Source: a virus
Taxonomy: Duplodnaviria; Heunggongvirae; Uroviricota; Caudoviricetes
Length of the DNA: 12,147 nt
IMG/VR virus record: IMGVR_UViG_2778261218_000003
Direction: 5' to 3' (one strand)
A program made the translations under genes and the position numbers. Under the pieces are notes generated by a model, which did no database searches, was not told the DNA's origin, and saw only the letters and a program-made list of their open reading frames with translations. Shown one piece after another: positions 1 to 12,147 of this stretch; position 1 is the stretch's first letter, and each line of letters opens with the position of its first letter.

Positions 1-543
1 ATGAAACGTTCAATTATTGCTGCCGCTGTCTTTTCTTCTTTTTTTATGAGCGCTGGAGTATTTGCTGCAGACGTTGATACCGGAACATTAACTATTAAGG
101 GGAATATTGCAGAATCTCCGTGTAAATTCGAAGCGGGTGGTGATTCAGTAAGTATTAATATGCCGACTGTACCAACCACTGTCTTTGAAGGTAAAGCTAA
201 ATATTCTACCTATGATGATGCAGTCGGTGTAACCAGCAGCATGTTAAAAATTAGCTGCCCGAAAGAAGTTGCTGGTGTAAAACTCTCGTTGATTACCAAC
301 GATAAAATAACCGGTAACGATAAGGCGATAGCCAGTAGCAACGATACCGTGGGTTACTATCTCTATTTAGGTGATAACAGCGATGTCCTGGATGTTTCTG
401 CACCTTTTAACATTGAGAGTTATAAAACAGCGGAAGGTCAATATGCTATTCCGTTTAAAGCAAAATACCTGAAACTGACAGATAACTCAGTGCAATCAGG
501 TGATGTGTTATCTTCTCTGGTTATGCGTGTGGCGCAGGATTAA
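1..543 (+). CDS. yehD: Fimbrial major subunit (chaperone-usher pilin), YehD-like
   Basis: 180-aa ORF with ATG at base 1 and an N-terminal signal peptide (MKRSIIAAAVFSSFFMSAGVFA). It is the first gene of a pilin-chaperone-usher-adhesin array, followed by an intrinsic terminator-like hairpin. Gene identity is recalled from the E. coli yehDCBA-rcnBA-rcnR neighbourhood, not searched. Confidence 0.85.
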   Translation: MKRSIIAAAVFSSFFMSAGVFAADVDTGTLTIKGNIAESPCKFEAGGDSVSINMPTVPTTVFEGKAKYSTYDDAVGVTSSMLKISCPKEVAGVKLSLITNDKITGNDKAIASSNDTVGYYLYLGDNSDVLDVSAPFNIESYKTAEGQYAIPFKAKYLKLTDNSVQSGDVLSSLVMRVAQD

Positions 544-580
544 TAAATAAAATTGCAAGTTTCTCCAGGTAATAAACATG

Positions 581-606
581 GCCGCTATCCCCATGGCGGC
601 TTTTTA
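581..606 (+). terminator. Intrinsic terminator/attenuator-like hairpin between the pilin and chaperone genes
   Basis: 8-bp stem GCCGCTAT / ATGGCGGC (one G-U pair), CCCC loop, then TTTTT at 601-605. This is the usual position for a partial terminator after the major subunit gene in fimbrial operons. Confidence 0.5.
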
Positions 607-623
607 ATTTAAGAGGCATTAAG

Positions 624-1298
624 ATGAAAGGATTATTATCTTTACTCATTTTTTCTATGGTCCTTCCTGCACATGCCGGAATTGTTATCTACGGGACGCG
701 CATTATTTACCCGGCAGAAAATAAAGAAGTTATGGTGCAGTTGATGAACCAGGGAAACCGTTCTTCGCTGCTGCAGGCGTGGATTGATGATGGCGATACG
801 TCGTTACCACCAGAAAAAATTCAGGTTCCTTTCATGTTAACGCCACCAGTGGCAAAAATAGGGGCAAATTCCGGGCAGCAAGTAAAAATCAAAATTATGC
901 CGAATAAACTGCCCACTAATAAAGAAAGCATTTTTTATCTGAATGTTCTGGATATTCCACCAAATAGTCCAGAACAAGAAGGTAAGAATGCACTGAAGTT
1001 TGCGATGCAAAACAGAATCAAATTGTTTTACCGCCCGGCGGGTATTGCTCCGGTAAATAAAGCGACCTTTAAAAAGTTACTGGTAAGTCGCAGTGGCAAT
1101 GGATTGGTGATAAAAAATGACTCAGCTAATTGGGTGACGATTTCGGATGTCAAAGCTAATAATGTCAAAGTCAATTATGAAACTATAATGATTGCCCCCT
1201 TAGAAAGTCAGAGTGTTAATGTCAAAAGTAATAATGCAAATAACTGGTATCTGACCATTATCGATGACCACGGCAACTATATTAGTGACAAAATTTAA
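624..1298 (+). CDS. yehC: Periplasmic fimbrial chaperone (PapD-like)
   Basis: 224-aa ORF with RBS AAGAGG at 611-616 and signal peptide MKGLLSLLIFSMVLPAHA. The N-terminal region (GIVIYGTRIIYPAENKEVMVQLMNQGNRSSLLQAWID) fits the PapD-like chaperone pattern. An in-frame stop at 606-608 excludes a longer N-terminus. Confidence 0.85.
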   Translation: MKGLLSLLIFSMVLPAHAGIVIYGTRIIYPAENKEVMVQLMNQGNRSSLLQAWIDDGDTSLPPEKIQVPFMLTPPVAKIGANSGQQVKIKIMPNKLPTNKESIFYLNVLDIPPNSPEQEGKNALKFAMQNRIKLFYRPAGIAPVNKATFKKLLVSRSGNGLVIKNDSANWVTISDVKANNVKVNYETIMIAPLESQSVNVKSNNANNWYLTIIDDHGNYISDKI

Positions 1299-1313
1299 TT
1301 GCAGGAGCTGCCT

Positions 1314-3794
1314 ATGTTGAGAATGACCCCACTTGCATCAGCAATCGTAGCGTTATTGCTCGGCATTGAAGCTTATGCAGCTGAAGAAACCTTTGATACC
1401 CATTTTATGATAGGTGGAATGAAAGACCAGCAGGTTGCAAATATTCGTCTTGATGATAATCAACCCTTACCGGGGCAGTATGACATCGATATTTATGTCA
1501 ATAAGCAATGGCGCGGGAAATATGAGATTATTGTTAAAGACAACCCGCAAGAAACATGTTTATCAATAGAAGTTATCAAGCGGTTAGGCATTAATAGCGA
1601 TAACTTCGCCAGCGGTAAGCAATGTTTAACATTTGAGCAACTTGTTCAGGGTGGGAGCTATACCTGGGATATCGGGGTTTTTCGTCTCGATTTCAGTGTC
1701 CCGCAGGCCTGGGTGGAAGAACTGGAAAGTGGCTATGTTCCACCGGAAAACTGGGAGCGGGGTATTAATGCGTTTTATACCTCTTATTATGTGAGTCAGT
1801 ATTACAGTGACTATAAAGCGTCGGGTAATAGTAAGAGTACATATGTACGTTTTAACAGCGGGTTAAATTTACTGGGGTGGCAACTGCATTCTGATGCCAG
1901 TTTCAGTAAAACAAATAACAATCCAGGGGTGTGGAAAAGCAATACCCTGTATCTGGAACGTGGATTTGCCCAACTTCTCGGCACGCTTCGCGTGGGTGAT
2001 ATGTACACATCAAGCGATATTTTTGATTCTGTTCGCTTCAGCGGTGTGCGGTTGTTTCGTGATATGCAGATGTTGCCTAACTCGAAACAAAATTTTACGC
2101 CACGGGTGCAGGGGATTGCTCAGAGTAATGCGCTGGTAACTATTGAACAGAACGGTTTTGTGGTTTATCAGAAAGAGGTTCCTCCTGGCCCGTTCGCGAT
2201 TACAGATTTGCAGTTGGCCGGTGGTGGAGCAGATCTTGATGTCAGCGTGAAAGAGGCGGACGGCTCGGTAACCACCTATCTGGTGCCTTATGCAGCAGTG
2301 CCAAATATGCTGCAACCCGGCGTATCGAAATATGATTTTGCGGCGGGTCGTAGCCATATTGAAGGGGCGAGCAAACAAAGTGATTTTGTCCAGGCGGGTT
2401 ATCAGTATGGTTTTAATAATTTATTGACGCTGTATGGTGGCTCGATGGTCGCGAATAATTATTACGCGTTTACTTTGGGGACTGGCTGGAATACACGCAT
2501 TGGTGCCATTTCCGTCGATGCCACGAAGTCGCATAGTAAACAAGACAACGGCGATGTGTTTGACGGGCAAAGTTATCAAATTGCCTACAACAAATTTGTG
2601 AGCCAAACGTCGACGCGTTTTGGTCTGGCGGCCTGGCGTTATTCATCGCGTGATTACCGGACATTTAATGATCACGTTTGGGCAAACAATAAAGATAATT
2701 ATCGCCGTGATGAAAACGATGTCTATGACATTGCCGATTATTACCAGAACGATTTTGGCCGTAAAAATAGCTTCTCTGCCAATATGAGCCAGTCATTGCC
2801 AGAAGGCTGGGGGTCTGTGTCCTTAAGTACGTTATGGCGAGATTACTGGGGGCGTAGCGGCAGCAGTAAGGATTATCAGTTGAGTTATTCCAATAACTGG
2901 CGGCGGATAAGCTATATCCTCGCGGCAAGCCAGGCGTATGACGAGAATCATCATGAAGAGAAACGTTTTAATATTTTTATATCGATTCCCTTTGATTGGG
3001 GTGATGACGTTACGACGCCTCGTCGGCAAATATATATGTCTAACTCAACGACGTTTGATGATCAGGGGTTTGCCTCAAATAATACGGGATTATCAGGAAC
3101 CGTTGGAAGCCGGGATCAGTTTAACTATGGGGTCAACCTGAGTTATCAGAATCAGGGAAATGAAACGACAGCTGGGGCGAATTTGACCTGGAACGCGCCG
3201 GTTGCGACAGTGAATGGCAGTTATAGTCAGTCGAGTACTTATCGACAGGCTGGAGCCAGTGTTTCAGGGGGCATTGTCGCCTGGTCGGGGGGCGTTAATC
3301 TGGCGAACCGTCTTTCCGAAACGTTTGCTGTGATGAATGCGCCAGGAATTAAAGATGCTTATGTCAATGGGCAAAAATATCGCACAACAAACCGTAATGG
3401 AGTGGTGGTATACGACGGAATGACACCTTATCGGGAAAATCACCTGATGCTGGATGTGTCGCAAAGCGATAGCGAAGCAGAATTACGTGGCAACCGGAAA
3501 ATTGCCGCCCCTTATCGCGGCGCGGTTGTACTGGTTAATTTTGATACCGATCAGCGCAAGCCCTGGTTTATTAAAGCGTTAAGAGCGGATGGTCAACCAT
3601 TAATGTTTGGTTATGAAGTCAATGATATCCATGGTCATAATATTGGCGTTGTCGGTCAGGGAAGCCAGTTATTTATTCGCACCAATGAAGTACCGCCATC
3701 GGTTAATGTGGCAATTGATAAGCAACAAGGACTTTCATGCACAATCACCTTCGGTAAAGAGATTGATGAAAGTAGAAATTATATTTGCCAGTAA
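1314..3794 (+). CDS. yehB: Outer-membrane fimbrial usher protein
   Basis: About 826-aa ORF, the size of usher proteins, sitting between chaperone and adhesin genes. I prefer the ATG at 1314 (RBS AGGAG at 1303-1307) over the track start at 1299; it gives a signal-peptide-like N-terminus MLRMTPLASAIVALLLGIEAYA. Confidence 0.85.
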   Translation: MLRMTPLASAIVALLLGIEAYAAEETFDTHFMIGGMKDQQVANIRLDDNQPLPGQYDIDIYVNKQWRGKYEIIVKDNPQETCLSIEVIKRLGINSDNFASGKQCLTFEQLVQGGSYTWDIGVFRLDFSVPQAWVEELESGYVPPENWERGINAFYTSYYVSQYYSDYKASGNSKSTYVRFNSGLNLLGWQLHSDASFSKTNNNPGVWKSNTLYLERGFAQLLGTLRVGDMYTSSDIFDSVRFSGVRLFRDMQMLPNSKQNFTPRVQGIAQSNALVTIEQNGFVVYQKEVPPGPFAITDLQLAGGGADLDVSVKEADGSVTTYLVPYAAVPNMLQPGVSKYDFAAGRSHIEGASKQSDFVQAGYQYGFNNLLTLYGGSMVANNYYAFTLGTGWNTRIGAISVDATKSHSKQDNGDVFDGQSYQIAYNKFVSQTSTRFGLAAWRYSSRDYRTFNDHVWANNKDNYRRDENDVYDIADYYQNDFGRKNSFSANMSQSLPEGWGSVSLSTLWRDYWGRSGSSKDYQLSYSNNWRRISYILAASQAYDENHHEEKRFNIFISIPFDWGDDVTTPRRQIYMSNSTTFDDQGFASNNTGLSGTVGSRDQFNYGVNLSYQNQGNETTAGANLTWNAPVATVNGSYSQSSTYRQAGASVSGGIVAWSGGVNLANRLSETFAVMNAPGIKDAYVNGQKYRTTNRNGVVVYDGMTPYRENHLMLDVSQSDSEAELRGNRKIAAPYRGAVVLVNFDTDQRKPWFIKALRADGQPLMFGYEVNDIHGHNIGVVGQGSQLFIRTNEVPPSVNVAIDKQQGLSCTITFGKEIDESRNYICQ

Positions 3795-3809
3795 TAGTCA
3801 GGTGGTTCT

Positions 3810-4844
3810 ATGGAAATTCGCATAATGCTATTTATATTAATGATGATGGTTATGCCTGTGAGCTATGCGGCATGTTATAGTGAGTTATCTGTTCAGCACA
3901 ACTTGGTTGTTCAGGGGGATTTTGCACTTACTCAAACACAAATGGCGACATATGAGCATAATTTTAATGATTCGTCATGCGTAAGTACAAATACTATCAC
4001 CCCTATGAGCCCGTCGGATATTATTGTTGGACTTTATAACGATACCATAAAATTAAATTTACATTTTGAATGGACCAATAAAAACAACATCACGTTGTCA
4101 AATAATCAGACCAGTTTCACCAGTGGTTATTCAGTTACGGTGACACCTGCGGCCAGTAATGCAAAAGTGAATGTTTCTGCGGGGGGCGGCGGTTCAGTGA
4201 TGATTAATGGTGTTGCGACATTATCCAGTGCTTCATCATCGACACGCGGGAGTGCCGCAGTACAATTTCTACTGTGTTTATTAGGTGGCAAGTCATGGGA
4301 TGCATGTGTAAATAGCTACAGAAATGCATTGGCACAAAATGCAGGTGTCTATTCCTTTAATCTGACATTGTCATACAACCCGATAACCACAACCTGCAAA
4401 CCGGATGATTTATTAATTACTTTAGACAGTATTCCCGTTTCACAATTACCAGCCACAGGTAACAAAGCAACAATAAATAGTAAAAAAGAGGATATTATTC
4501 TGCGTTGTAAAAATTTATTAGGTCAACAAAATCAAACATCACGGAAAATGCAGGTGTATTTATCAAGTTCTGACTTGTTAACCAACAGCAACACAATACT
4601 GAAAGGTGCGGAAGATAATGGCGTAGGATTTATTCTTGAAAGTAATGGTTCGCCAGTCACACTTTTAAATATCACTAACAGCAGTAAAGGATATACAAAT
4701 TTAAAGGAAGTTGCGGCGAAGTCAAAACTTACAGATACAACGGTTTCAATTCCGATAACTGCCAGTTACTACGTCTACGATACAAATAAAATTAAATCTG
4801 GCGCACTGGAGGCAACCGCATTAATCAACGTGAAATACGACTAA
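3810..4844 (+). CDS. yehA: Fimbrial adhesin-like / minor subunit protein
   Basis: 344-aa ORF in the last position of the operon, with a hydrophobic N-terminus and Ser/Thr/Asn-rich composition typical of tip adhesins. Followed by a strong terminator. Confidence 0.8.
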   Translation: MEIRIMLFILMMMVMPVSYAACYSELSVQHNLVVQGDFALTQTQMATYEHNFNDSSCVSTNTITPMSPSDIIVGLYNDTIKLNLHFEWTNKNNITLSNNQTSFTSGYSVTVTPAASNAKVNVSAGGGGSVMINGVATLSSASSSTRGSAAVQFLLCLLGGKSWDACVNSYRNALAQNAGVYSFNLTLSYNPITTTCKPDDLLITLDSIPVSQLPATGNKATINSKKEDIILRCKNLLGQQNQTSRKMQVYLSSSDLLTNSNTILKGAEDNGVGFILESNGSPVTLLNITNSSKGYTNLKEVAAKSKLTDTTVSIPITASYYVYDTNKIKSGALEATALINVKYD

Positions 4845-4900
4845 TAACAAGCAAGACGAGCAAGTGGCTAATAATAAAAAATAACAAGGTGTCTGCATTT

Positions 4901-4927
4901 CCCCCTCATGATGAGGGGGCTTTTTTT
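4901..4927 (+). terminator. Rho-independent terminator ending the fimbrial operon, shared with convergent rcnB
   Basis: Stem CCCCCTC (4901-4907) / GAGGGGG (4913-4919), 5-nt loop, then CTTTTTTT (4920-4927). An A-rich tract at 4871-4885 on the other side and the rcnB stop codon inside the T-run suggest it also serves the minus-strand gene. Confidence 0.6.
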
Positions 4928-5264
4928 AGCGATGATAAAAAATCTCACCGTCGTAGGCTTTAATGATTTTACCGTCGGTGTCGCTGATCAACACGTACGC
5001 GCCACCCATATAGGTCCAGTGCGTCCCGGCATCAGGCGCGGGCAGGTTACGTAACTGCCACTGCTTAATGTTGTACTCATCGGTGCGGTACATCTCTGGG
5101 ACGGTATCGCCTGGTTTGAAATGCTTAAAGTCAGCAATGAAACTGCTTAACTCATACTTAGAAATTCCCGAGGTATTGGTCGAACCCGCGGTGGCTGGTG
5201 CGGCCCAGGCGGCACTGGTAACCAGCAAAAGCGCACCCAGCAACATCTTATTTTTAATGGTCAT
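4926..5264 (-). CDS. rcnB: Periplasmic nickel/cobalt homeostasis protein RcnB (YohN)
   Basis: The track ORF (4926-5444) is trimmed to the internal ATG at 5264, giving a 112-aa protein with a signal peptide (MTIKNKMLLGALLLVTSAAWA). It lies immediately downstream of rcnA on the same strand. The sequence matches my recollection of RcnB. Confidence 0.85.
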   Translation of the reverse strand: MTIKNKMLLGALLLVTSAAWAAPATAGSTNTSGISKYELSSFIADFKHFKPGDTVPEMYRTDEYNIKQWQLRNLPAPDAGTHWTYMGGAYVLISDTDGKIIKAYDGEIFYHR

Positions 5265-5379
5265 AAACTCTCCACTTTGGGGATCTGTAATATCAGTCGC
5301 ATATCTTTCCTGCCATACAATATAACTGACAAGCGATATTTTGTTAGTGATCCCATGATTTCGTAAAAAGTGTAAATGA

Positions 5380-5402
5380 AAGGATGCCCTAAAAGCATCC
5401 TT
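5380..5402 (-). terminator. Stem-loop between rcnA and rcnB (possible attenuator)
   Basis: 8-bp inverted repeat AAGGATGC / GCATCCTT with a 7-nt loop. On the minus strand it is followed by a U-rich but interrupted tract. Weak call. Confidence 0.3.
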
Positions 5403-5482
5403 AGCGAGCAGAGAGTCAGCGGAAATAGCTGATTTAAGAATCATCCTGGGCTGAAGATAACATGCAAGCCTAAAGGATTGAG

Positions 5483-6307
5483 TTATCGCATTATGCCCAT
5501 GAAGCCATGTACGCCCATATACACACCAACTAAGCCAATCAACAGACTGGAAAAATAGGGGGCGCGTTTAGCGAGAGTGTTAAATCCGCTCCAGCGTTTT
5601 GCGACCTGCTGAACGCTGATTGCTGCGCCAACGCCTACGGTGATAAGCGTTAACGCCAGGCCAATGCTGAAACTGACGACCAGTGTTGCGCCCAGTGTCA
5701 GGGCTTTCAACTGAATGCATATCAACAGCACGGTAATTGCTGCCGGGCAGGGGATAAGGCCACCGGTTAAGCCAAATAACAAAATTTGCCAGTTGGTGAC
5801 CTCTCTACCATCAAAGCGTCGTTTAATGTCATTGGCATGGGCTCGTGCATGGGCATCCTGATACTCGCCATGTTCGTGATGGTGATGATGTCCATGGTCG
5901 TGGTGATCTTCGTGATCGTGGTGATGATGTTCATGATCATACTCGTGCATATTCTCCAGCCAGTTGCGTTCGCCGCGCCAGGTACGCCAGAACATCCAGA
6001 ACGCGGTGCCAATAATGATCACTGCGGAAATCAGCTGGAGCCACGGTTCTGCTGATTGAGCAGTAAAGCGCTTGCTGATCACCATCCCGCCAAAGGCAAT
6101 TAACCAGACCACTGCGGTATGCGAAATAGTTGCTGCCAGTCCGAGCATCACCGCTTGTTTAATGGTGCCTTTGATGGCGATGATAAACGCCGCCATCATC
6201 GTTTTTGAGTGCCCTGGTTCCAGGCCATGAAGCGCACCAAGTAAGATGGCGCTGGGGATGAAGAACCAGGCGTTTCCTTGCTGAAGAAGAGTTGTAAATT
6301 CGGTCAT
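5483..6307 (-). CDS. rcnA: Nickel/cobalt efflux permease RcnA (YohM)
   Basis: 274-aa membrane protein with several hydrophobic segments and a distinctive His/Asp/Glu-rich loop (HEYDHEHHHHDHEDHHDHGHHHHHEHGE). It is divergent from rcnR across an operator-bearing intergenic region. Confidence 0.9.
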   Translation of the reverse strand: MTEFTTLLQQGNAWFFIPSAILLGALHGLEPGHSKTMMAAFIIAIKGTIKQAVMLGLAATISHTAVVWLIAFGGMVISKRFTAQSAEPWLQLISAVIIIGTAFWMFWRTWRGERNWLENMHEYDHEHHHHDHEDHHDHGHHHHHEHGEYQDAHARAHANDIKRRFDGREVTNWQILLFGLTGGLIPCPAAITVLLICIQLKALTLGATLVVSFSIGLALTLITVGVGAAISVQQVAKRWSGFNTLAKRAPYFSSLLIGLVGVYMGVHGFMGIMR

Positions 6308-6344
6308 GATAATAATTCTTAGTATTAATTCGGCAATCTGATTC

Positions 6345-6379
6345 TACTCCCCCCCAGTACCTGATACTACCCCCCAGTA
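6345..6379 (+). promoter_or_regulatory. Tandem RcnR operator sites in the rcnA-rcnR divergent promoter region
   Basis: Two copies of TACT-(C-tract)-AGTA: TACTCCCCCCCAGTA at 6345-6359 and TACTACCCCCCAGTA at 6365-6379. These fit the published RcnR recognition motif (TACT-G6-N-AGTA read on the other strand). Confidence 0.75.
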
Positions 6380-6427
6380 GATTAATAGTGCTATGATTTT
6401 TCATATTCTTGTTAACCAGGTGTTGCC

Positions 6428-6700
6428 ATGTCTCATACAATCCGTGATAAACAGAAACTGAAAGCGCGTGCCAGTAAGATTCAGGGCCAGGTCGTGGCGC
6501 TCAAGAAAATGCTCGACGAGCCGCACGAATGCGCTGCAGTTTTACAACAGATTGCTGCTATCCGTGGCGCGGTAAACGGTCTGATGCGGGAAGTGATTAA
6601 AGGTCATCTGACGGAACACATCGTTCACCAGGGGGATGAGCTAAAACGTGAAGAAGATCTGGATGTCGTTCTGAAGGTGCTGGATTCATATATCAAATAA
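6428..6700 (+). CDS. rcnR: Ni/Co-responsive transcriptional repressor RcnR (CsoR/RcnR family)
   Basis: 90-aa ORF ([38 protein letters not shown]...), the size and sequence of RcnR, divergent from rcnA. Confidence 0.9.
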
Positions 6701-7029: not shown

Positions 7030-8250
7030 GTGGGAAAAGCACTAAACAAACTGAGCGATTCGACGTTAAAAAAATTGGCGGCTGTCCAGGCAGAAAAAGA
7101 GCGTTTTTACTCCGACGGGGGCGGGCTGGAGATTAAACACTCAAAGGGCGGCAAATTAACCTGGTATTTCCGGTACCGAACGGGAGGCCGTGAGGTTGCC
7201 GCAGAGCGGTTAAAGCTGGGGGCTTACCCTGAATTGTCGCTGAAAGCTGCAAGGGAAAAACGCGCACAGTGCCGGGCATGGCTGGCTGAGGGTAAAAACC
7301 CCCGTTATGAGTTGTGCGCCACAGTACAGGAAGCGCTAAAACCCGTTACGGTGAAGGAGGCGATTAACTACTGGCTGGATGAATATGCGAAGGATAACCG
7401 CAAAGACTACATAAAGCTGGTGCAACGTATGGATAAGCACATCATTTGCCATATAGGGGCAATTCCTCTTGATAAATGCGATACAAGGCAGTGGATCGCA
7501 TGTTTTGACCGTGTACGAAAAAAAGCACCAGTAGCAGCGGGGCACGTCATGCAAACCTGCAAACAGGCGCTAAAGTTCTGCCGCAGGAGGCGCTACGCGT
7601 TCAGTAATGCCCTGGACGATTTGATCGTCAGCGATGTGGGTAAGAGAGCAGAAATTCGCGAGAGGGTGCACAGCAACAGCGAATTAAAGGAAATTCTACG
7701 TGCTATTGATAGTGATGTGTTCGCGCCTTACTACAGCGCGTTAATGCGCTTGCTGATTGTGTTCGGGTGCAGAACGGCAGAGGTCAGACTTTCAGAGATC
7801 AAAGAATGGGATCTGAAAGAAATGTTGTGGACAGTACCAAGAGAGCACAGCAAAACGAAGGTAACGATATTCAGGCCAATCCCCGATGGCATTTTGCCGT
7901 TCATTCAGAAGCTGGTGGATCAGAACCGGCATACAGGGTTATTGCTCGGAGAACTGAAAAAAGATACCACGGTAGCGCAATATGGGCGAAATGCGCATAA
8001 GCGGCTTAAGCAGGAACACTGGACGCTGCATGACTTCCGGCACACGTTTACAACGATGCTGAACGATTTAGGTGTCGATCCGCATATCGTTGAGCACATC
8101 ACAGCGCATCAGATGCCCGGTCAGCAAAAAACCTATAACCATTCACGCTATTTACAGGCGAAGCGGGACGCGTTGAATCTGTGGGTTGAGCGTCTCGATG
8201 TGCTGGCTGGAAATCATGAAAATATTATTATGCTAAAGGTGGCTAAATGA
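7030..8250 (+). CDS. int: Tyrosine site-specific integrase, P4/CP4-57 family
   Basis: 406-aa ORF with a GTG start and RBS AAGAGGA at 7014-7020. The N-terminus is P4-int-like (GGLEIKHSKGGKLTWYFRYRTGGREV...GAYPELSLKAAR). The C-terminal catalytic region carries HDFRHTF (H-x-x-R) and a downstream Tyr (KTYNHSRY). Confidence 0.9.
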   Translation: MGKALNKLSDSTLKKLAAVQAEKERFYSDGGGLEIKHSKGGKLTWYFRYRTGGREVAAERLKLGAYPELSLKAAREKRAQCRAWLAEGKNPRYELCATVQEALKPVTVKEAINYWLDEYAKDNRKDYIKLVQRMDKHIICHIGAIPLDKCDTRQWIACFDRVRKKAPVAAGHVMQTCKQALKFCRRRRYAFSNALDDLIVSDVGKRAEIRERVHSNSELKEILRAIDSDVFAPYYSALMRLLIVFGCRTAEVRLSEIKEWDLKEMLWTVPREHSKTKVTIFRPIPDGILPFIQKLVDQNRHTGLLLGELKKDTTVAQYGRNAHKRLKQEHWTLHDFRHTFTTMLNDLGVDPHIVEHITAHQMPGQQKTYNHSRYLQAKRDALNLWVERLDVLAGNHENIIMLKVAK

Positions 8251-9020
8251 AATTACCAAAAAGACTCTATTATCCGCTACCTGAAGCAGCAGAAAAGTTA
8301 AGCTGTGCAATAAAAGATCTTTATCATTACGCATATATAGGTGCTCTTGATATTTCTGTATATATACCAAAAATTGATGCTAAAAAATTCAATTTATCAT
8401 TATGTCATTTTATCAATGGTTGTAATGAGGAAGAATTAATAAAATATCCGTTCAATGATGAATCTGTTGTTTTTGGCAGTAATTTTACAGTTGGTTTAAC
8501 TGGTGACTCTGAATTTTTAGATAGTGCTATTATTGGTCCGGTAGGGAATTCTATAAAATGTTATTATGTTAGCAGTTTGGAAGGGTTTTATTATACTCCA
8601 GCAAATGTTTTTGCTGATGCTGAATTTAGCATGAGACAATATATAAAATGTTCTCATCTTACGAATAGGTATGGTGATGATAATCTCATGTATGTTTTTT
8701 GTAAGGGTGGTTATGAGTTTGATGTTAACTATTTGTGTGTGATGGCTAGTGATTTAGATAATATAAAAAATACGGGAGACTTCCCGAAGCTAACAGAAGA
8801 TAGCCCAAAAGCATCGTCAAAAAGGAATGAGGTTATTTACTCTTTAATTAAACTTATTCCAGAAATGGGTGATGTAGACCTGGACACGGAATCATTACCT
8901 AAAATAGCGGATTTAATTGATTCTATAGCTGCATCCAGAGGGATAGAATTTCCCAAAACACACTGGCAGACATGGCAAAAGTATTTGGGGCGTGAACCTC
9001 AACAAAAACGTAAAAAGTGA
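8247..9020 (+). CDS. Hypothetical protein, AT-rich orphan cargo gene, no family recognised
   Basis: 257-aa ORF whose ATG overlaps the int stop (ATGA), with RBS AAGGTGG at 8235-8241. It is strongly AT-rich compared with both flanks (by eye, not computed). I recognise no catalytic motif. The N-terminus (KRLYYPLPEAAEKLSCAIKDLYHY) may be a small helix-turn-helix-like segment. Confidence 0.6.
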   Translation: MKLPKRLYYPLPEAAEKLSCAIKDLYHYAYIGALDISVYIPKIDAKKFNLSLCHFINGCNEEELIKYPFNDESVVFGSNFTVGLTGDSEFLDSAIIGPVGNSIKCYYVSSLEGFYYTPANVFADAEFSMRQYIKCSHLTNRYGDDNLMYVFCKGGYEFDVNYLCVMASDLDNIKNTGDFPKLTEDSPKASSKRNEVIYSLIKLIPEMGDVDLDTESLPKIADLIDSIAASRGIEFPKTHWQTWQKYLGREPQQKRKK

Positions 9021-9047
9021 TATCACGTGCTGATAGTGTGATATCAC
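9017..9047 (+). promoter_or_regulatory. Two copies of the perfect 10-bp palindrome GTGATATCAC, 21 bp apart (operator-like)
   Basis: GTGATATCAC at 9017-9026 and 9038-9047, each self-complementary, with centres two helical turns apart. They sit in the short spacer upstream of alpA. Confidence 0.45.
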
Positions 9048-9077
9048 ACACACCACATTTCATCACCGCCTACAATC

Positions 9078-9109
9078 GCCCTCGTTCTATAACGTTCGAG
9101 GGCTTTTTT
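9078..9109 (+). terminator. Terminator-like hairpin abutting the alpA start codon
   Basis: Stem GCCCTCG (9078-9084) / CGAGGGC (9097-9103), 12-nt loop, then TTTTTT (9104-9109) running directly into the alpA ATG at 9110. Confidence 0.45.
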
Positions 9110-9334
9110 ATGAACCAATACAAACAATCCCAATTACCAGCAGATCGAGTAATCCGTGAGGATGAATGTCGAAACTTAACAGGTGTTAGCCGTACCACAC
9201 GCTACGAACTGGAGAAAAAAGGGAATTTCCCGTCACGCCGTAATCTGGGTGGTCGTTCAGTAGGTTGGCTGCTTTCCGAAGTTATGGAATGGGTGCAAAG
9301 CCGTGATCGCGTTAATTCAGGTAAGGCAGCGTAG
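9110..9334 (+). CDS. alpA: AlpA-family phage regulatory protein (small winged-HTH excisionase/activator)
   Basis: The track ORF (9017-9334) is trimmed to the ATG at 9110, giving 74 aa. The protein (MNQYKQSQLPADRVIREDECRNLTGVSRTTRYELEKKGNFPSRRNLGGRSVGWLLSEVMEWV) has the AlpA/Vis-type pattern and sits downstream of int as in CP4-57-like islands. Confidence 0.8.
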   Translation: MNQYKQSQLPADRVIREDECRNLTGVSRTTRYELEKKGNFPSRRNLGGRSVGWLLSEVMEWVQSRDRVNSGKAA

Positions 9335-9342
9335 GGGGAATA

Positions 9343-9471
9343 ATGGCACATAAAACAAAGGCGACCGTAAGAGGTCGCCAGTGGTACAGCACTAAACTTG
9401 AGCGCGTTCAGAATACCAATTTACTAACATCCCGCCAATGCGCTAACGGTATCCACCAGCAATCAACTTAA
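9343..9471 (+). CDS. Possible 42-aa small ORF between alpA and the ant-like gene
   Basis: Found by manual translation: MAHKTKATVRGRQWYSTKLERVQNTNLLTSRQCANGIHQQST, with RBS AGGGGG 4 nt upstream of the ATG at 9343. It contains hairpin copy 1. Coding status is uncertain. Confidence 0.25.
   Translation: MAHKTKATVRGRQWYSTKLERVQNTNLLTSRQCANGIHQQST
9349..9384 (+). repeat. Conserved hairpin element, copy 1
   Basis: ATAAAACAAAGGCGACC-GTAAGA-GGTCGCCAGTGG, with a 7-bp stem GGCGACC/GGTCGCC. Copy 2 at 10583-10619 has identical stem and flanks but a different loop. Confidence 0.6.
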
Positions 9472-9490
9472 TTTTATAGCAGGAGTTTTT

Positions 9491-10291
9491 ATGAAACAGC
9501 GAAAAACGCCCGTACAGGGGCAGGGCTTCGTTCGGCCTGAAAACCAGAATCTGCAAAATTTCGGCGAAATTATCCCGGTTATTTCCGGCATTATTGGCGG
9601 GTGTGAAACCAATATTGTTAGCGCCAGAGCGTTGCATAAGGCGTTAGGTGTAGGTCGCGTTTTCCGTTCGTGGATCAAGGGGCGCATTGAAGAATACGGC
9701 TTCACGGAAGGCGTGGATTATGAGGTTGTTGAATATTTGAGCCGACCCGATCCGGTGAGCGCAAAATCTCGCCAGCAAACAGCTCTTGAGTACATCATTA
9801 CCGTGAACATGGCGAAAGAACTGGCGATGGTCGAACGCACCGAACAGGGCCGCGCCGTTCGCCAGTACTTCATCAAATGCGAGGAGGAGCTACACAAGGT
9901 AGCGCCAGTGCGTTCCGCAGTGTTACGCCGGGAACTGAAAGCCCGTATCACAGTTGCCAGCTACTTTAAGCCAATGTGTGCCGCGCTGGAGGCGTACCGG
10001 GCTGAACTGGGTAAAAACACTCTACAGCACCACTACACCACGGAAGCCAATATGCTGGCGCGTATCGTGCTGGGCGGTATGACTGCCAGACAGTGGGCAC
10101 TGGCGAACGGCATTACAGGCGAACCACGCGACCACATGAGCACGTTGCAGCTTGAGCACCTTTCTTACCTTGAGCAGAGCAATATCACGCTGATTGAGTT
10201 AGGCCAGGGCTACCACCAGCGGAAAGCTGAATTAATTCGTCTTTCGCAGCGTTGGTTAGCCCGTCGCATGGAGGAAAACAGCCATGTGTAA
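9491..10291 (+). CDS. Phage antirepressor-like protein (AntA N-terminal region plus KilAC/ANT-type region)
   Basis: 266-aa ORF with RBS AGGAG at 9481-9485. The N-terminal segment (NIVSARALHKALGVGRVFRSWIKGRIEEYGFTEGVDY) resembles the AntA domain. The central segment (TALEYIITVNMAKELAMVERTEQGRAVRQYFIKCEEEL) resembles the KilAC domain. Both are from memory of those families. Confidence 0.7.
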   Translation: MKQRKTPVQGQGFVRPENQNLQNFGEIIPVISGIIGGCETNIVSARALHKALGVGRVFRSWIKGRIEEYGFTEGVDYEVVEYLSRPDPVSAKSRQQTALEYIITVNMAKELAMVERTEQGRAVRQYFIKCEEELHKVAPVRSAVLRRELKARITVASYFKPMCAALEAYRAELGKNTLQHHYTTEANMLARIVLGGMTARQWALANGITGEPRDHMSTLQLEHLSYLEQSNITLIELGQGYHQRKAELIRLSQRWLARRMEENSHV

Positions 10292-10726
10292 CGCTCTGAC
10301 CGTTACAAAAAGAGAAAGCGCCCCGTTGCCGGAGCGCCTTTGTGAACGAATAGCCTACTGCGCCATATTGCTTACTGTCTACGAGGCAGATTATAGCGTT
10401 GTGGTCGCACAGAGTGAAGGCGCTGATCACCGTTACTACAGCACACCAGAAATGCAGAATATTTTGCTGCAAAATGTCGTTGGTCACGCTGTCCGGAAAG
10501 CAAAAAATTTTGCTGGTGGCGCGACTGATGCGATTTTGTCAGGTAGCCAGGTGCTGATCAATCTGATGTCTGGTTTCGTTCTGGATAAAACAAAGGCGAC
10601 CGCAGAGGGTCGCCAGTGGGTATTACGGCAAATCAAACCTGAATGCATCGCCAACAATGCTGCATTTGTGGCTGGTGGGCAAATCTTTAGTGGAATTTTT
10701 TCCCTGTTGCCTGCACTGGGTAATGG
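10284..10726 (+). CDS. Hypothetical ORF coupled to the ant-like gene; 3' end undefined
   Basis: ATG at 10284 overlaps the ant stop (ATGTGTAA) and is preceded by GGAGG. The first ~150 codons look protein-like, but the frame has no stop until 12080 and runs antisense through three minus-strand genes. The true extent is unknown; it may be a truncated or fused gene remnant. The end coordinate is arbitrary. Confidence 0.3.
10583..10619 (+). repeat. Conserved hairpin element, copy 2
   Basis: ATAAAACAAAGGCGACC-GCAGAG-GGTCGCCAGTGG, same stem and flanks as copy 1, with loop substitutions only. Confidence 0.6.
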
Positions 10727-10909
10727 TTACTTGTATCGCGTATTCCTGCACAAAACAGGACTGCTTTTTTTGATGAAATCCTCAAGCAAAAAACACTCTG
10801 TTGATGCTCTTGGTAATTCTCTGGTGGAAGGATGGGGTTTTATCCCCCATTTTCGTTTACGTTCTTCCAGAAAGGAGGTGAGTATATCTAGTTTCTGTGC
10901 GTCCATCAT
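10727..10909 (-). CDS. Small hypothetical protein (60 aa), distal gene of the minus-strand operon
   Basis: ORF MMDAQKLDILTSFLEERKRKWGIKPHPSTRELPRASTECF... with a weak RBS (AAGAG). Its position in a same-strand array after the RHH gene supports it modestly. Confidence 0.3.
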   Translation of the reverse strand: MMDAQKLDILTSFLEERKRKWGIKPHPSTRELPRASTECFLLEDFIKKSSPVLCRNTRYK

Positions 10910-10966
10910 TTTTCTCTTGGATACTGCTTTGTGCCATGGATCCTCACACCACGGCGCTGATAGTGG

Positions 10967-11146
10967 TTATTTCTGCTCTTCAACATCACCATGTCGTGAT
11001 GTTTTCCAGGTATATAGCCCCATTTTTGTGCGCTTGTGCGTTTTAAGAAATTGCTCAAGGTGGAAGGTTTTAACCTTTCCCTGTTCGGTTTCTTGTGCAA
11101 TTTCTTTCGCCATTTGCTGGGCTAAAAAATCTTTTAATTTAGGCAT
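10967..11146 (-). CDS. Small hypothetical protein (59 aa), second gene of the minus-strand operon
   Basis: Below the ORF-track size cutoff; found by manual translation: MPKLKDFLAQQMAKEIAQETEQGKVKTFHLEQFLKTHKRTKMGLYTWKTSRHGDVEEQK. RBS AGGGGG lies 7 nt upstream and it has balanced, charged, helical composition. It starts 70 nt after the RHH gene stop. Confidence 0.45.
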   Translation of the reverse strand: MPKLKDFLAQQMAKEIAQETEQGKVKTFHLEQFLKTHKRTKMGLYTWKTSRHGDVEEQK

Positions 11147-11215
11147 GGTTCGCCCCCTGCTTACAGTCTGGCGCTCGAGTTCCTTAGGCTCTGGCGCGAA
11201 TGGTGATTATTCTGG

Positions 11216-11515
11216 CTACCCTTTGGCCTTGCGCCGCTGGAGTTCTTCACGAGCAACGGAAACAAGCTGCTCTATATTTTCGGCGAGTTCGACCCCTATT
11301 TTTTCCATTTGTTCCAGCGCATCGAGCGAAGAAACCAGGGGATTTTCTCCGCTTCCTTCTGCCTGGCGGCGGGCGATCTCACCGCGTACAGCCGTAACTA
11401 TAAAATTCGCTTTAGTTTCCCCTGGCTGTAGGGATGCCTCAATGCCACTCACTACTTCATGTGGAAATCTGGCATTCAGTTGCTGTGACTTATTGTTAAC
11501 AGAACTCGTGGACAT
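11216..11515 (-). CDS. Ribbon-helix-helix (Arc/MetJ/CopG-like) DNA-binding protein, possibly YlcI/YnfO-like
   Basis: The track ORF (11216-11692) is trimmed to the ATG at 11515, which has a strong RBS (GGAGGTG). The 99-aa protein (MSTSSVNNKSQQLNARFPHEVVSGIEASLQPGETKANFIVTAVRGEIARR...) has the beta-strand then helix pattern of RHH regulators at its N-terminus. It faces an operator-rich divergent region. Confidence 0.65.
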   Translation of the reverse strand: MSTSSVNNKSQQLNARFPHEVVSGIEASLQPGETKANFIVTAVRGEIARRQAEGSGENPLVSSLDALEQMEKIGVELAENIEQLVSVAREELQRRKAKG

Positions 11516-11558
11516 GTTTGCACCTCCGATTAATAACGGGATGCAGTGTAATACAAAA

Positions 11559-11614
11559 GTGAATACCAAAAAAGACTTGAAATGGTATTCACCAAAATGT
11601 AATCTGAATACCAC
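11559..11614 (+). promoter_or_regulatory. Operator-like repeats in the divergent control region
   Basis: Perfect 10-bp inverted repeat GTGAATACCA (11559-11568) / TGGTATTCAC (11583-11592) with a 14-bp spacer, plus a third half-site TGAATACCAC at 11605-11614. They lie between the RHH gene start (11515, minus) and the plus-strand gene at 11715. Confidence 0.5.
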
Positions 11615-11714
11615 AAGGGCTGATACATGCAATTCAGCAATTGAAACGACGAAGCCCCGCACTGTTGGAGCAGTAACGGGGCTTCTAACCAAACCGTTAA
11701 CAGGAGTAACGATT

Positions 11715-12080
11715 ATGGCTGGAACACAGCATACCCAAACTCACCCTAAATTTATATACACCTTCTTGGCGGTGCACCGTGATTGCATAGCTGACGGTAA
11801 AAACACTGTACACGTAGCCGCCGATACGCTGGTTGATGCCTGCGAGATGCTCAATGACATGGGCTATATCTCGGCAACATGGAAAGGGCGCGAAGAAAAC
11901 ACGCTGTTTATTCAGAAATGCGAGAACAATTTTATCTGGCGTTTTATCGCCCTGAGTACAGCACAACCGCGCGTGATTCACATCGAGGCCACCAGCGAAC
12001 AGGAAGCCCGCCAGCAATCTCCTGATGGCTGCGTGATGGTATTCGCTGCCCGTATTCGCCAGGAGGTGGAACATGTGTAA
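11715..12080 (+). CDS. Hypothetical protein (121 aa), first gene of the rightward operon
   Basis: ATG at 11715 with RBS AGGAG at 11702-11706 (MAGTQHTQTHPKFIYTFLAVHRDCIADGKNTVHVAAD...). It is in frame with, and forms the 3' part of, the 598-aa track ORF. I prefer it to the overlapping minus ORF 11697-12116, which is Cys/His-rich and low-complexity. Confidence 0.55.
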   Translation: MAGTQHTQTHPKFIYTFLAVHRDCIADGKNTVHVAADTLVDACEMLNDMGYISATWKGREENTLFIQKCENNFIWRFIALSTAQPRVIHIEATSEQEARQQSPDGCVMVFAARIRQEVEHV

Positions 12081-12147
12081 TGCAACATGGCCTGATGCAG
12101 CGGTAGACGCTATCAAAACGCTGATGGATTCACTTATTGAGATTTCT
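12073..12147 (+). CDS. Hypothetical protein, 5' fragment (continues beyond window)
   Basis: ATG at 12073 overlaps the upstream stop (ATGTGTAA) and follows RBS AGGAGGTGG at 12061-12069. Only 25 codons are visible (MCNATWPDAAVDAIKTLMDSLIEIS). Confidence 0.3.
   Translation, partial: MCNATWPDAAVDAIKTLMDSLIEIS

Follow-up and report, generated by a model that had tools for sequence, protein, structure and literature searches.

An eta-like reading frame kept open across antisense YlcI/YnfO-type genes may link antA to an Icd-like gene in a probable PICI/P4-like phage satellite

In the immI region of phages P1 and P7, which comprises the c4 antisense RNA, icd and ant, a gene of the Icd family is linked to one encoding an antirepressor, and in P1 transcription proceeds downstream only if icd is translated; we know of no long bridging open reading frame (ORF) described for P1. 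The eta and kil genes of phage P4 are reportedly nested, as Forti and co-workers are said to have described in 1999. The eta gene is coupled to an alpA homologue, Kil is a truncated form of Eta, and an internal constitutive promoter and the CI RNA complete the arrangement (PMC10111431). The transcript from this promoter is quickly terminated and processed to CI RNA, and it is the translation of Eta that prevents this termination, allowing read-through from the late promoter (PMC10111431). Gram-negative phage-inducible chromosomal islands (PICIs) and P4-like satellites are organized in Integration, Bro and Replication zones (PMC10111431; PMC13612085). Here we describe a locus apparently of this kind in the 12,147-nt viral record IMGVR_UViG_2778261218_000003 (the window, positions being counted from its first letter), where a plus-strand frame of 598 codons (10284-12080), referred to below as the bridge ORF, opens on the stop codon of the AntA/AntB antirepressor-family gene antA, passes opposite three minus-strand ORFs, and closes as an Icd/Kil-like domain.

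We propose, with a probability of roughly 0.6, that the bridge ORF would be the counterpart of P4 eta, coupled here to antA, and that the ribosomes translating it would shield transcripts reading through toward the replication genes. Several features of its anatomy point in this direction. The open stretch runs from stop to stop over 606 codons (10260-12080), and its ATG overlaps the antA stop at 10289-10291 (CC ATG TGT AA), preceded at 9 nt by a Shine-Dalgarno (SD) sequence, GGAGG, located at 10270-10274 inside the last antA codons; both SD and ATG are conserved on the antA stop in the relatives. At the other end, the family NF033153 (phage_ICD_like) matches bridge ORF residues 550-593 (75 bits, E 2.5e-21) and P4 Eta residues 161-208 (73 bits, E 1.4e-20), and both proteins share phrog_1743; a direct BLASTP comparison of the two is weak (E 1e-4 over 20 aa).

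The likeness to P4 extends to the layout. In both cases, a long ORF starts at or overlaps the end of an upstream regulatory gene (the P4 eta ORF occupies 8168-8812 on the minus strand, and its first ATG-initiated form, 8812->8168, overlaps the end of ORF88/alpA at 8764), runs through the immunity and internal promoter regions, contains in frame a small Kil/Icd-like 3' gene with a start of its own, and lies just upstream of the replication operon. The differences concern the size, about 200 codons in P4 against 598 here; the upstream partner, which is antA here and alpA in P4; and the content of the immunity region, where P4 carries the sense-strand isrK and C4 (CI) RNAs together with a match to Phage_ASH, and the window has instead three antisense protein-coding ORFs and two one-way terminators. 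A scan of 9300-12147 against Rfam, with E values up to 1, returned no C4, isrK or other credible family, and no Pfam Phage_ASH match was obtained in the window. With the P1/P7 immI region the locus shares the linkage of an Icd-family gene to an antirepressor gene, but antA precedes icd here, in the reverse order, and the C4 RNA is missing.

The openness of the frame is conserved well beyond this record. Its closest relative, L001, has a 597-aa version of the bridge ORF, and a second one, L002, a 512-aa version with a different middle. The Icd-like protein served to collect 80 viral-contig loci (the Icd-anchored set); in about 65 of these the open frame reaches 266-653 codons upstream, with middles that are non-homologous. 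All 39 loci with the antA junction motif CATGTGTAA keep it open from the junction to the Icd stop, and across 31 length classes the count of stops is 0 in the bridge frame, compared with 599 and 684 in the two remaining plus-strand frames. A scan for AntA across species gave frames of 208-438 codons, measured from the AntA stop to the end of the Icd-like domain, in Escherichia ruysiae, Serratia, Pectobacterium, Providencia, Xenorhabdus, Proteus and Photorhabdus. Versions adjacent to AlpA were also found, in two loci. In a further set of 80 loci, found through the YlcI/YnfO gene, the frame antisense to this ribbon-helix-helix (RHH)-like gene runs on into the Icd-like domain in about 67, at 11 distinct RHH-to-Icd distances that all fall in one phase; in several of the remaining ones, the long ORF stops within a few bases of the Icd-like start, or overlaps it, in another frame, so that the common feature would be translation reaching the Icd start and not a fused protein. 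The credible minus-strand genes inside bridge ORFs all lie in the same relative phase, and these cover at least three RHH subtypes, genes like the 59-aa one of the window, and small membrane-like ORFs. The most extreme frames observed reach 653-819 codons (L107, 2219-4180; L184; L177), that of L107 spanning two tandem YlcI-like genes.

The immunity cassette held inside the frame also differs among loci. In the AntA-linked loci of Xenorhabdus, Photorhabdus and Proteus, the isrK and C4 RNAs lie inside the long ORF, as they do in P4, and six loci (L008, L010, L011, L013, L015 and L017) share with P4 both these RNAs and the Phage_ASH match. The window, most of the E. coli loci, and those of Serratia, Pectobacterium and Providencia have antisense RHH genes instead of the RNAs. 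Since both types of cassette are found in the same kind of ORF, the frame looks like a common scaffold for an exchangeable immunity cassette, which here would be an antisense operon encoding a protein repressor, as opposed to the sense-strand isrK/C4 (CI) RNAs of P4. As for the Phage_ASH match itself, residues 37-161 of P4 Eta match PF10554, the 'Ash protein family' (8332-8704 of the P4 sequence, minus strand), over a stretch that contains the genes for isrK (8615-8692) and the C4/CI RNA (8420-8507), and PF10554 may largely reflect conserved RNA genes read in the eta frame, not a protein.

The initial annotation of this stretch had treated the 598-aa ORF as a composite, and most of what it noticed stands. 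The frame from 10284 does stay open for 1.8 kb, its last 366 nt coincide with an independently initiated gene, and its middle is rich in Ser, Cys and Arg (18%, 6% and 7% of residues 149-411, which contain 0% Gln, compared with 6%, 3% and 5% in residues 1-148). The information content is indeed mixed, with a middle dictated by real genes on the opposite strand. What is not upheld is the implied meaninglessness of the frame, since it is open in every one of the 39 AntA-linked loci. Similarly, the middle had been called exactly antisense to three minus-strand genes, one of them with a strong ribosome-binding site and an RHH-like product; the three ORFs are there, in one shared frame, and the third does have a strong site and a product that is RHH-like by sequence pattern, but the two strands are not aligned codon on codon, as minus codon position 1 falls on plus position 2 and the third positions coincide. 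The spacers between the three, 57 and 69 nt, are both multiples of three.

Several points weigh against an eta-like role, and part of them would suit a different explanation, which we consider unlikely: that the long frame is a passive by-product, made of the shadow of the minus genes and of inherited, unselected openness, carried along with an immunity module that is mobile as a cassette between conserved flanks, and never translated beyond the Icd-like gene. Openness over each minus gene is cheap, but not free. After synonymous permutation of the three minus genes of the window, the bridge frame is open with P values of 0.28, 0.20 and 0.42 (0.08-0.15 when E. coli codon usage is applied), and nine RHH allele clusters, of which eight are open, give 0.2-0.56, so that 20-56% of the trials leave the frame open over a single gene. 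In about 15 of the 80 Icd-anchored loci the long frame is missing (128-145 codons); cargo genes have entered there between alpA and an RHH gene of another kind, and the bridge device is therefore dispensable. Loci of the L054 type keep 325 open codons over the RHH gene with no upstream gene abutting the frame, and part of the openness may thus be inherited and not currently selected. Many of the loci are close, recombining E. coli relatives, and the length classes do not count as independent events. The RefSeq annotation of L001, produced by the Prokaryotic Genome Annotation Pipeline (PGAP), consists of separate small genes, the long frame being left unannotated there and in L002. The lack of amino-acid constraint in 10284-10726, discussed below, would also suit a by-product.

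Other difficulties concern the proposed function. Running transcription and translation head-on through three genes would be expensive, and that the bridge ORF is transcribed and translated at all is something we infer from sequence. The YlcI/YnfO product, of presumed RHH fold and repressor role, gave no significant match to PDB sequences (best E 0.065, to an unrelated protein). The GC skew of the plus strand over 10730-11515 is 0 to -0.11, that is, weakly C-rich over G and mainly T-rich, with no clear signature of Rho loading (rut), and on account of this low skew the signature was dropped as support.

Long shadow frames are usually the codon-aligned antisense frame of a real gene. The bridge ORF resembles them in that its middle 790 nt are antisense to real genes and of low complexity, and differs in that here the codon-aligned frame is the closed one, with 2-4 stops per minus gene, and the open one extends into gene-free DNA. 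Both intergenic spacers, the 443-nt region 10284-10726 and the 199-nt leader of the Icd-like gene are stop-free and in phase, so over 760 nt of the frame have no gene opposite them; mononucleotide shuffles of 10284-11714 averaged 24 stops per frame, and zero was reached in none of the 20,000. In one architecture class, where the 279 variant alleles, if placed at random, would be expected to include about 9.1 that create a stop, 0 were observed (Poisson P ~1e-4). A shadow therefore accounts for part of the openness over single genes, and not for the common phase or the gene-free stretches. A mere by-product is also hard to reconcile with the stop counts across the 31 length classes, with the strong SD and ATG on the antA stop, with the exceptional loci whose ORF ends right at the Icd-like start, and with the recurrence of the same design in distant genera and in P4, where translation has been shown to matter (PMC10111431).

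In an alignment of 27 unique sequences, the variable columns of the first 443 nt of the frame are distributed 13/13/17 over the three codon positions, so there is no amino-acid constraint in this region, which fits a frame whose sequence does not matter; the selected trait would be an open, translatable frame and not its amino-acid sequence. The first 63 nt of the bridge ORF, which contain a minus-strand terminator read in the plus frame as SAPLPERLC, are almost invariant, and the terminator is found in other upstream contexts too. Next comes a cassette with two alleles, differing at many sites and by a 3-nt indel that keeps the reading frame, and the several different deletion junctions to the downstream module are all in frame as well.

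The initial annotation had offered two options for this segment, a short gene at 10284 that had lost its stop through fusion or rearrangement, or non-coding DNA with a regulatory element, in which the ATG would be irrelevant, and we find either one quite improbable. The absence of protein-level constraint and the presence of regulatory elements (hairpin copy 2, as had been pointed out, a second minus-strand terminator, a conserved minus promoter and the two-allele cassette) agree with the second option; the conserved SD and ATG on the antA stop speak against an irrelevant start. No relative has the stop that the first option calls for: comparison of related islands found none in the bridge frame among the 39 AntA-linked loci and the 31 length classes, nor in any of the 27 unique sequences, where the indel and the deletion junctions preserve the frame. 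Codon-usage scoring by segment, another of the checks that had been suggested, weakly favours the long frame in 10284-10724 (0.22, compared with 0.20 for AntA), mostly from the lack of stops, which inflates the score, and was not used as coding evidence.

Lowest in our estimate stands a genuine 598-aa multidomain protein of the Bro network or Eta type, functional in its N-terminal and middle parts and made beside the short Icd-like form: full-length homologues, which the initial annotation had named as evidence that would refute its reading, do formally exist in databases, namely one of 598 aa (98% identity, 100% coverage), accompanied by over 100 shorter forms (335-533 aa), to some of which NCBI gives the name 'Icd-like protein', the long ORF opens with the AntA N-terminal domain in three loci, and the inflated codon score would agree, but these entries are gene-caller products and no proof of translation, Pfam, NCBIfam and PHROG give no match outside the last ~70 residues (the PHROG matches span 527-598), variable sites are spread evenly over codon positions, the low-complexity middle is dictated by the other strand, and neither the length nor the middle is conserved among loci.

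Returning to the eta-like reading, the switch could work as follows. In the repressed state, the RHH-like YlcI/YnfO protein encoded on the minus strand would hold down the internal promoter region at 11516-11714, and the minus-strand transcripts would end at the two one-way terminators, 10585-10619 and 10305-10340. When transcription arrives from upstream, through the alpA/antA operon, ribosomes finishing antA would restart at ATG 10284 and translate the whole 1.8 kb, covering the transcript. This cover would block Rho-dependent termination over 1.4 kb that would be untranslated RNA but for these ribosomes, so that the transcript would reach icd and the replication genes, and the same upstream transcription would also run head-on through the repressor operon and oppose it. 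A bolder version, to which we would give somewhat less than even odds, is that the 1.8-kb frame is selected solely for being translated, acting as a ribosome shield against Rho and silencing the repressor operon by convergent transcription, with swappable cassettes (sense RNAs or antisense RHH genes) and an antisense small RNA (~10381-10305) that would gate ribosome entry.

If the bridge ORF is translated, it would be a case where the act of translation is selected and the protein is not, over ~600 codons and across three genes of the opposite strand. The P4 eta/kil principle would then apply as well to PICI-like satellites, which abound in Enterobacterales; the recurrent gene-caller 'Icd-like proteins' of 300-600 aa would be explained, and the change of a satellite from repression to induction would have a concrete switch that can be tested. 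Annotation calls for caution here, as the locus is described neither by 'one 598-aa protein' nor by 'four small genes and nothing else'. In our literature searches, no previous account of a frame that stays open across an antisense YlcI/YnfO operon came up: PMC10111431 and PMC13612085 list the genes and describe no frame open across YlcI/YnfO, and the word 'antisense' was not found in PMC10111431.

The antisense small RNA just mentioned is a candidate, a lead and not a result. A consensus scan of 9300-12147 returned a single sigma-70-like site, at 10418-10390 of the minus strand (TTCACT-17-TATAAT), within the variable cassette, and the second cassette allele retains this promoter with other bases (TTCACA-17-TAAAAT). 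Together with the terminator at 10305-10340, which is nearly invariant in the 27 unique sequences, it would delimit an antisense RNA of about 75 nt, which has fold z-scores of -2.7 and -2.9 and no Rfam match. Besides this terminator, the region has one of two copies of a 35-nt hairpin, 89% identical and differing in the loop, and all three structures are terminator-like on the minus strand only. Hairpin copy 2 is probably the end of the RHH operon transcript; hairpin copy 1, between alpA and antA, is not at the end of any minus-strand gene.

Among the three minus-strand ORFs, the YlcI/YnfO gene has an ATG preceded by a strong SD (GGAGGTG), and residues 9-50 of its product match NF041551 with 60.4 bits against a curated cut-off of 30. 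A search for YlcI homologues outside satellites, intended as a control, returned satellite-type loci only. The product would be RHH-like, to go by its sequence pattern and the adjacent operator-like repeats, and the gene, divergent from the Icd-like one, is the presumed repressor of the island. The 59-aa gene has a codon score of 0.38, against -0.03 for the plus frame there. The 60-aa ORF, which looks like a divergent paralogue-like copy of the former on the basis of a common F-x-LE-x-F motif, is the one whose coding status is least certain.

The Icd-like gene has an ATG in frame with the bridge ORF, with its own SD (AGGAG, 11702-11706) 8 nt upstream, its 121-aa product scores 80.6 bits to NF033153 against a curated cut-off of 25, and PGAP names it 'host cell division inhibitor Icd-like protein' in L001. 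The control region separating it from the YlcI/YnfO gene contains three copies of an operator-like 9-nt element, two direct (TGAATACCA, 11560-11568 and 11605-11613) and one inverted (TGGTATTCA, 11583-11591). A hairpin (AAGCCCCG...CGGGGCTT, 11652-11684) immediately precedes the Icd-like SD; with no T tract after it, it does not qualify as an intrinsic terminator, and it is kept in the loci of Serratia, Pectobacterium and Providencia, where it reads as KPxxxxxLTG in the translated frame. A consensus promoter scan of 11516-11714 found nothing, and the internal promoter of the proposed switch is assumed, not located.

Table 1. Features of the window, with the coordinates, strand and matches or marks on which they were called.
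Feature	Position	Strand	Match or remark
Chaperone-usher fimbrial operon, then rcnB and rcnA (minus strand), rcnR	1-6700		Island flank
Tyrosine integrase	7030-8250		PF00589
ORF of 257 aa, function unassigned	Between integrase and alpA		
AlpA-family regulator/excisionase gene (alpA)	9017-9334	+	PF05930 Phage_AlpA E 1e-16; phrog_2790
Hairpin copy 1	9350-9384	-	Terminator-like: GGCGACC-loop-GGTCGCC, then TTTGTTTTAT; repeat family D2
AntA/AntB antirepressor-family gene (antA)	9491-10291	+	PF08346 E 2.6e-23; PGAP name in relatives
Bridge ORF, 598 aa, eta-like	10284-12080	+	ATG; ends as Icd/Kil-like domain
Strong intrinsic terminator	10305-10340	-	11-bp stem with 7 G-C pairs, T tract
Candidate cis-antisense small RNA, ~75 nt	10305-10381	-	Opposite bridge ORF codons 8-33
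Two-allele variable cassette	10347-10418 (ORF nt 64-135)		Alignment of 27 unique sequences
Hairpin copy 2	10585-10619	-	Terminator-like; ~110 nt past last minus gene
ORF of 60 aa	10727-10909	-	No family match; codon score ambiguous
Small gene of 59 aa	10967-11146	-	phrog_21027 E 6.6e-13; PGAP hypothetical protein in L001
YlcI/YnfO-family gene, 99 aa	11216-11515	-	NF041551 E 1.3e-16; phrog_6522 E 7e-40
Divergent control region	11516-11714		Operator-like repeats, hairpin, SD
Nested Icd/Kil-like gene, 121 aa	11715-12080 (366 nt)	+	NF033153 E 6e-23
Start of next replication-operon gene (MCNATWPDAAV...)	12073-12147	+	Hypothetical protein in L001 and L002

Judged from its gene content, the window probably carries a PICI/P4-like phage satellite, with int, alpA, antA, the immunity region and the icd-like gene, followed by a primase gene that lies beyond the end of the window and is present in the relatives L001 and L002. 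Both this content and its order (int, alpA, AntA/AntB, YlcI/YnfO, Icd, primase) are those of Gram-negative and capsid-forming PICIs (PMC10111431; PMC13612085). The alpA gene is the last one of the int-p257-alpA block, with antA next downstream. No tRNA gene was found in the window, so the integration site here is not a tRNA. The closest complete E. coli relatives have further small ORFs, a DUF4222 gene and the primase gene, and one of them has a DUF2213 head-protease-like gene.

Some minor observations concern the borders and the contents of the module. The gene at 12073 overlaps the Icd-like stop through the motif CATGTGTAA, as happens at the end of antA, and in the extended form CATGTGTAA(C/T)GC this junction is found at 10283-10294 and 12073-12084, the antA/bridge ORF and icd/next-gene boundaries, both of which translate as ...HV-stop overlapping MCNA...; modules may be exchanged at this point, or the motif may be a common coupling signal. 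In three loci devoid of the long frame, unrelated cargo genes of 227-467 aa, on either strand, lie exactly at the position of the bridge ORF, and the arrangement seems to be broken there by a hotspot for accessory or defence genes in the alpA-RHH interval. Finally, the 121-aa Icd-like product resembles a Kil-like unit of 65 aa into which ~55 aa have been inserted or partly duplicated, with THPKFIYTFLAV close to the start and NFIWRFIAL ahead of the NF033153 domain, and shorter Icd-like forms of 65 aa are found in other loci (L083-L107).

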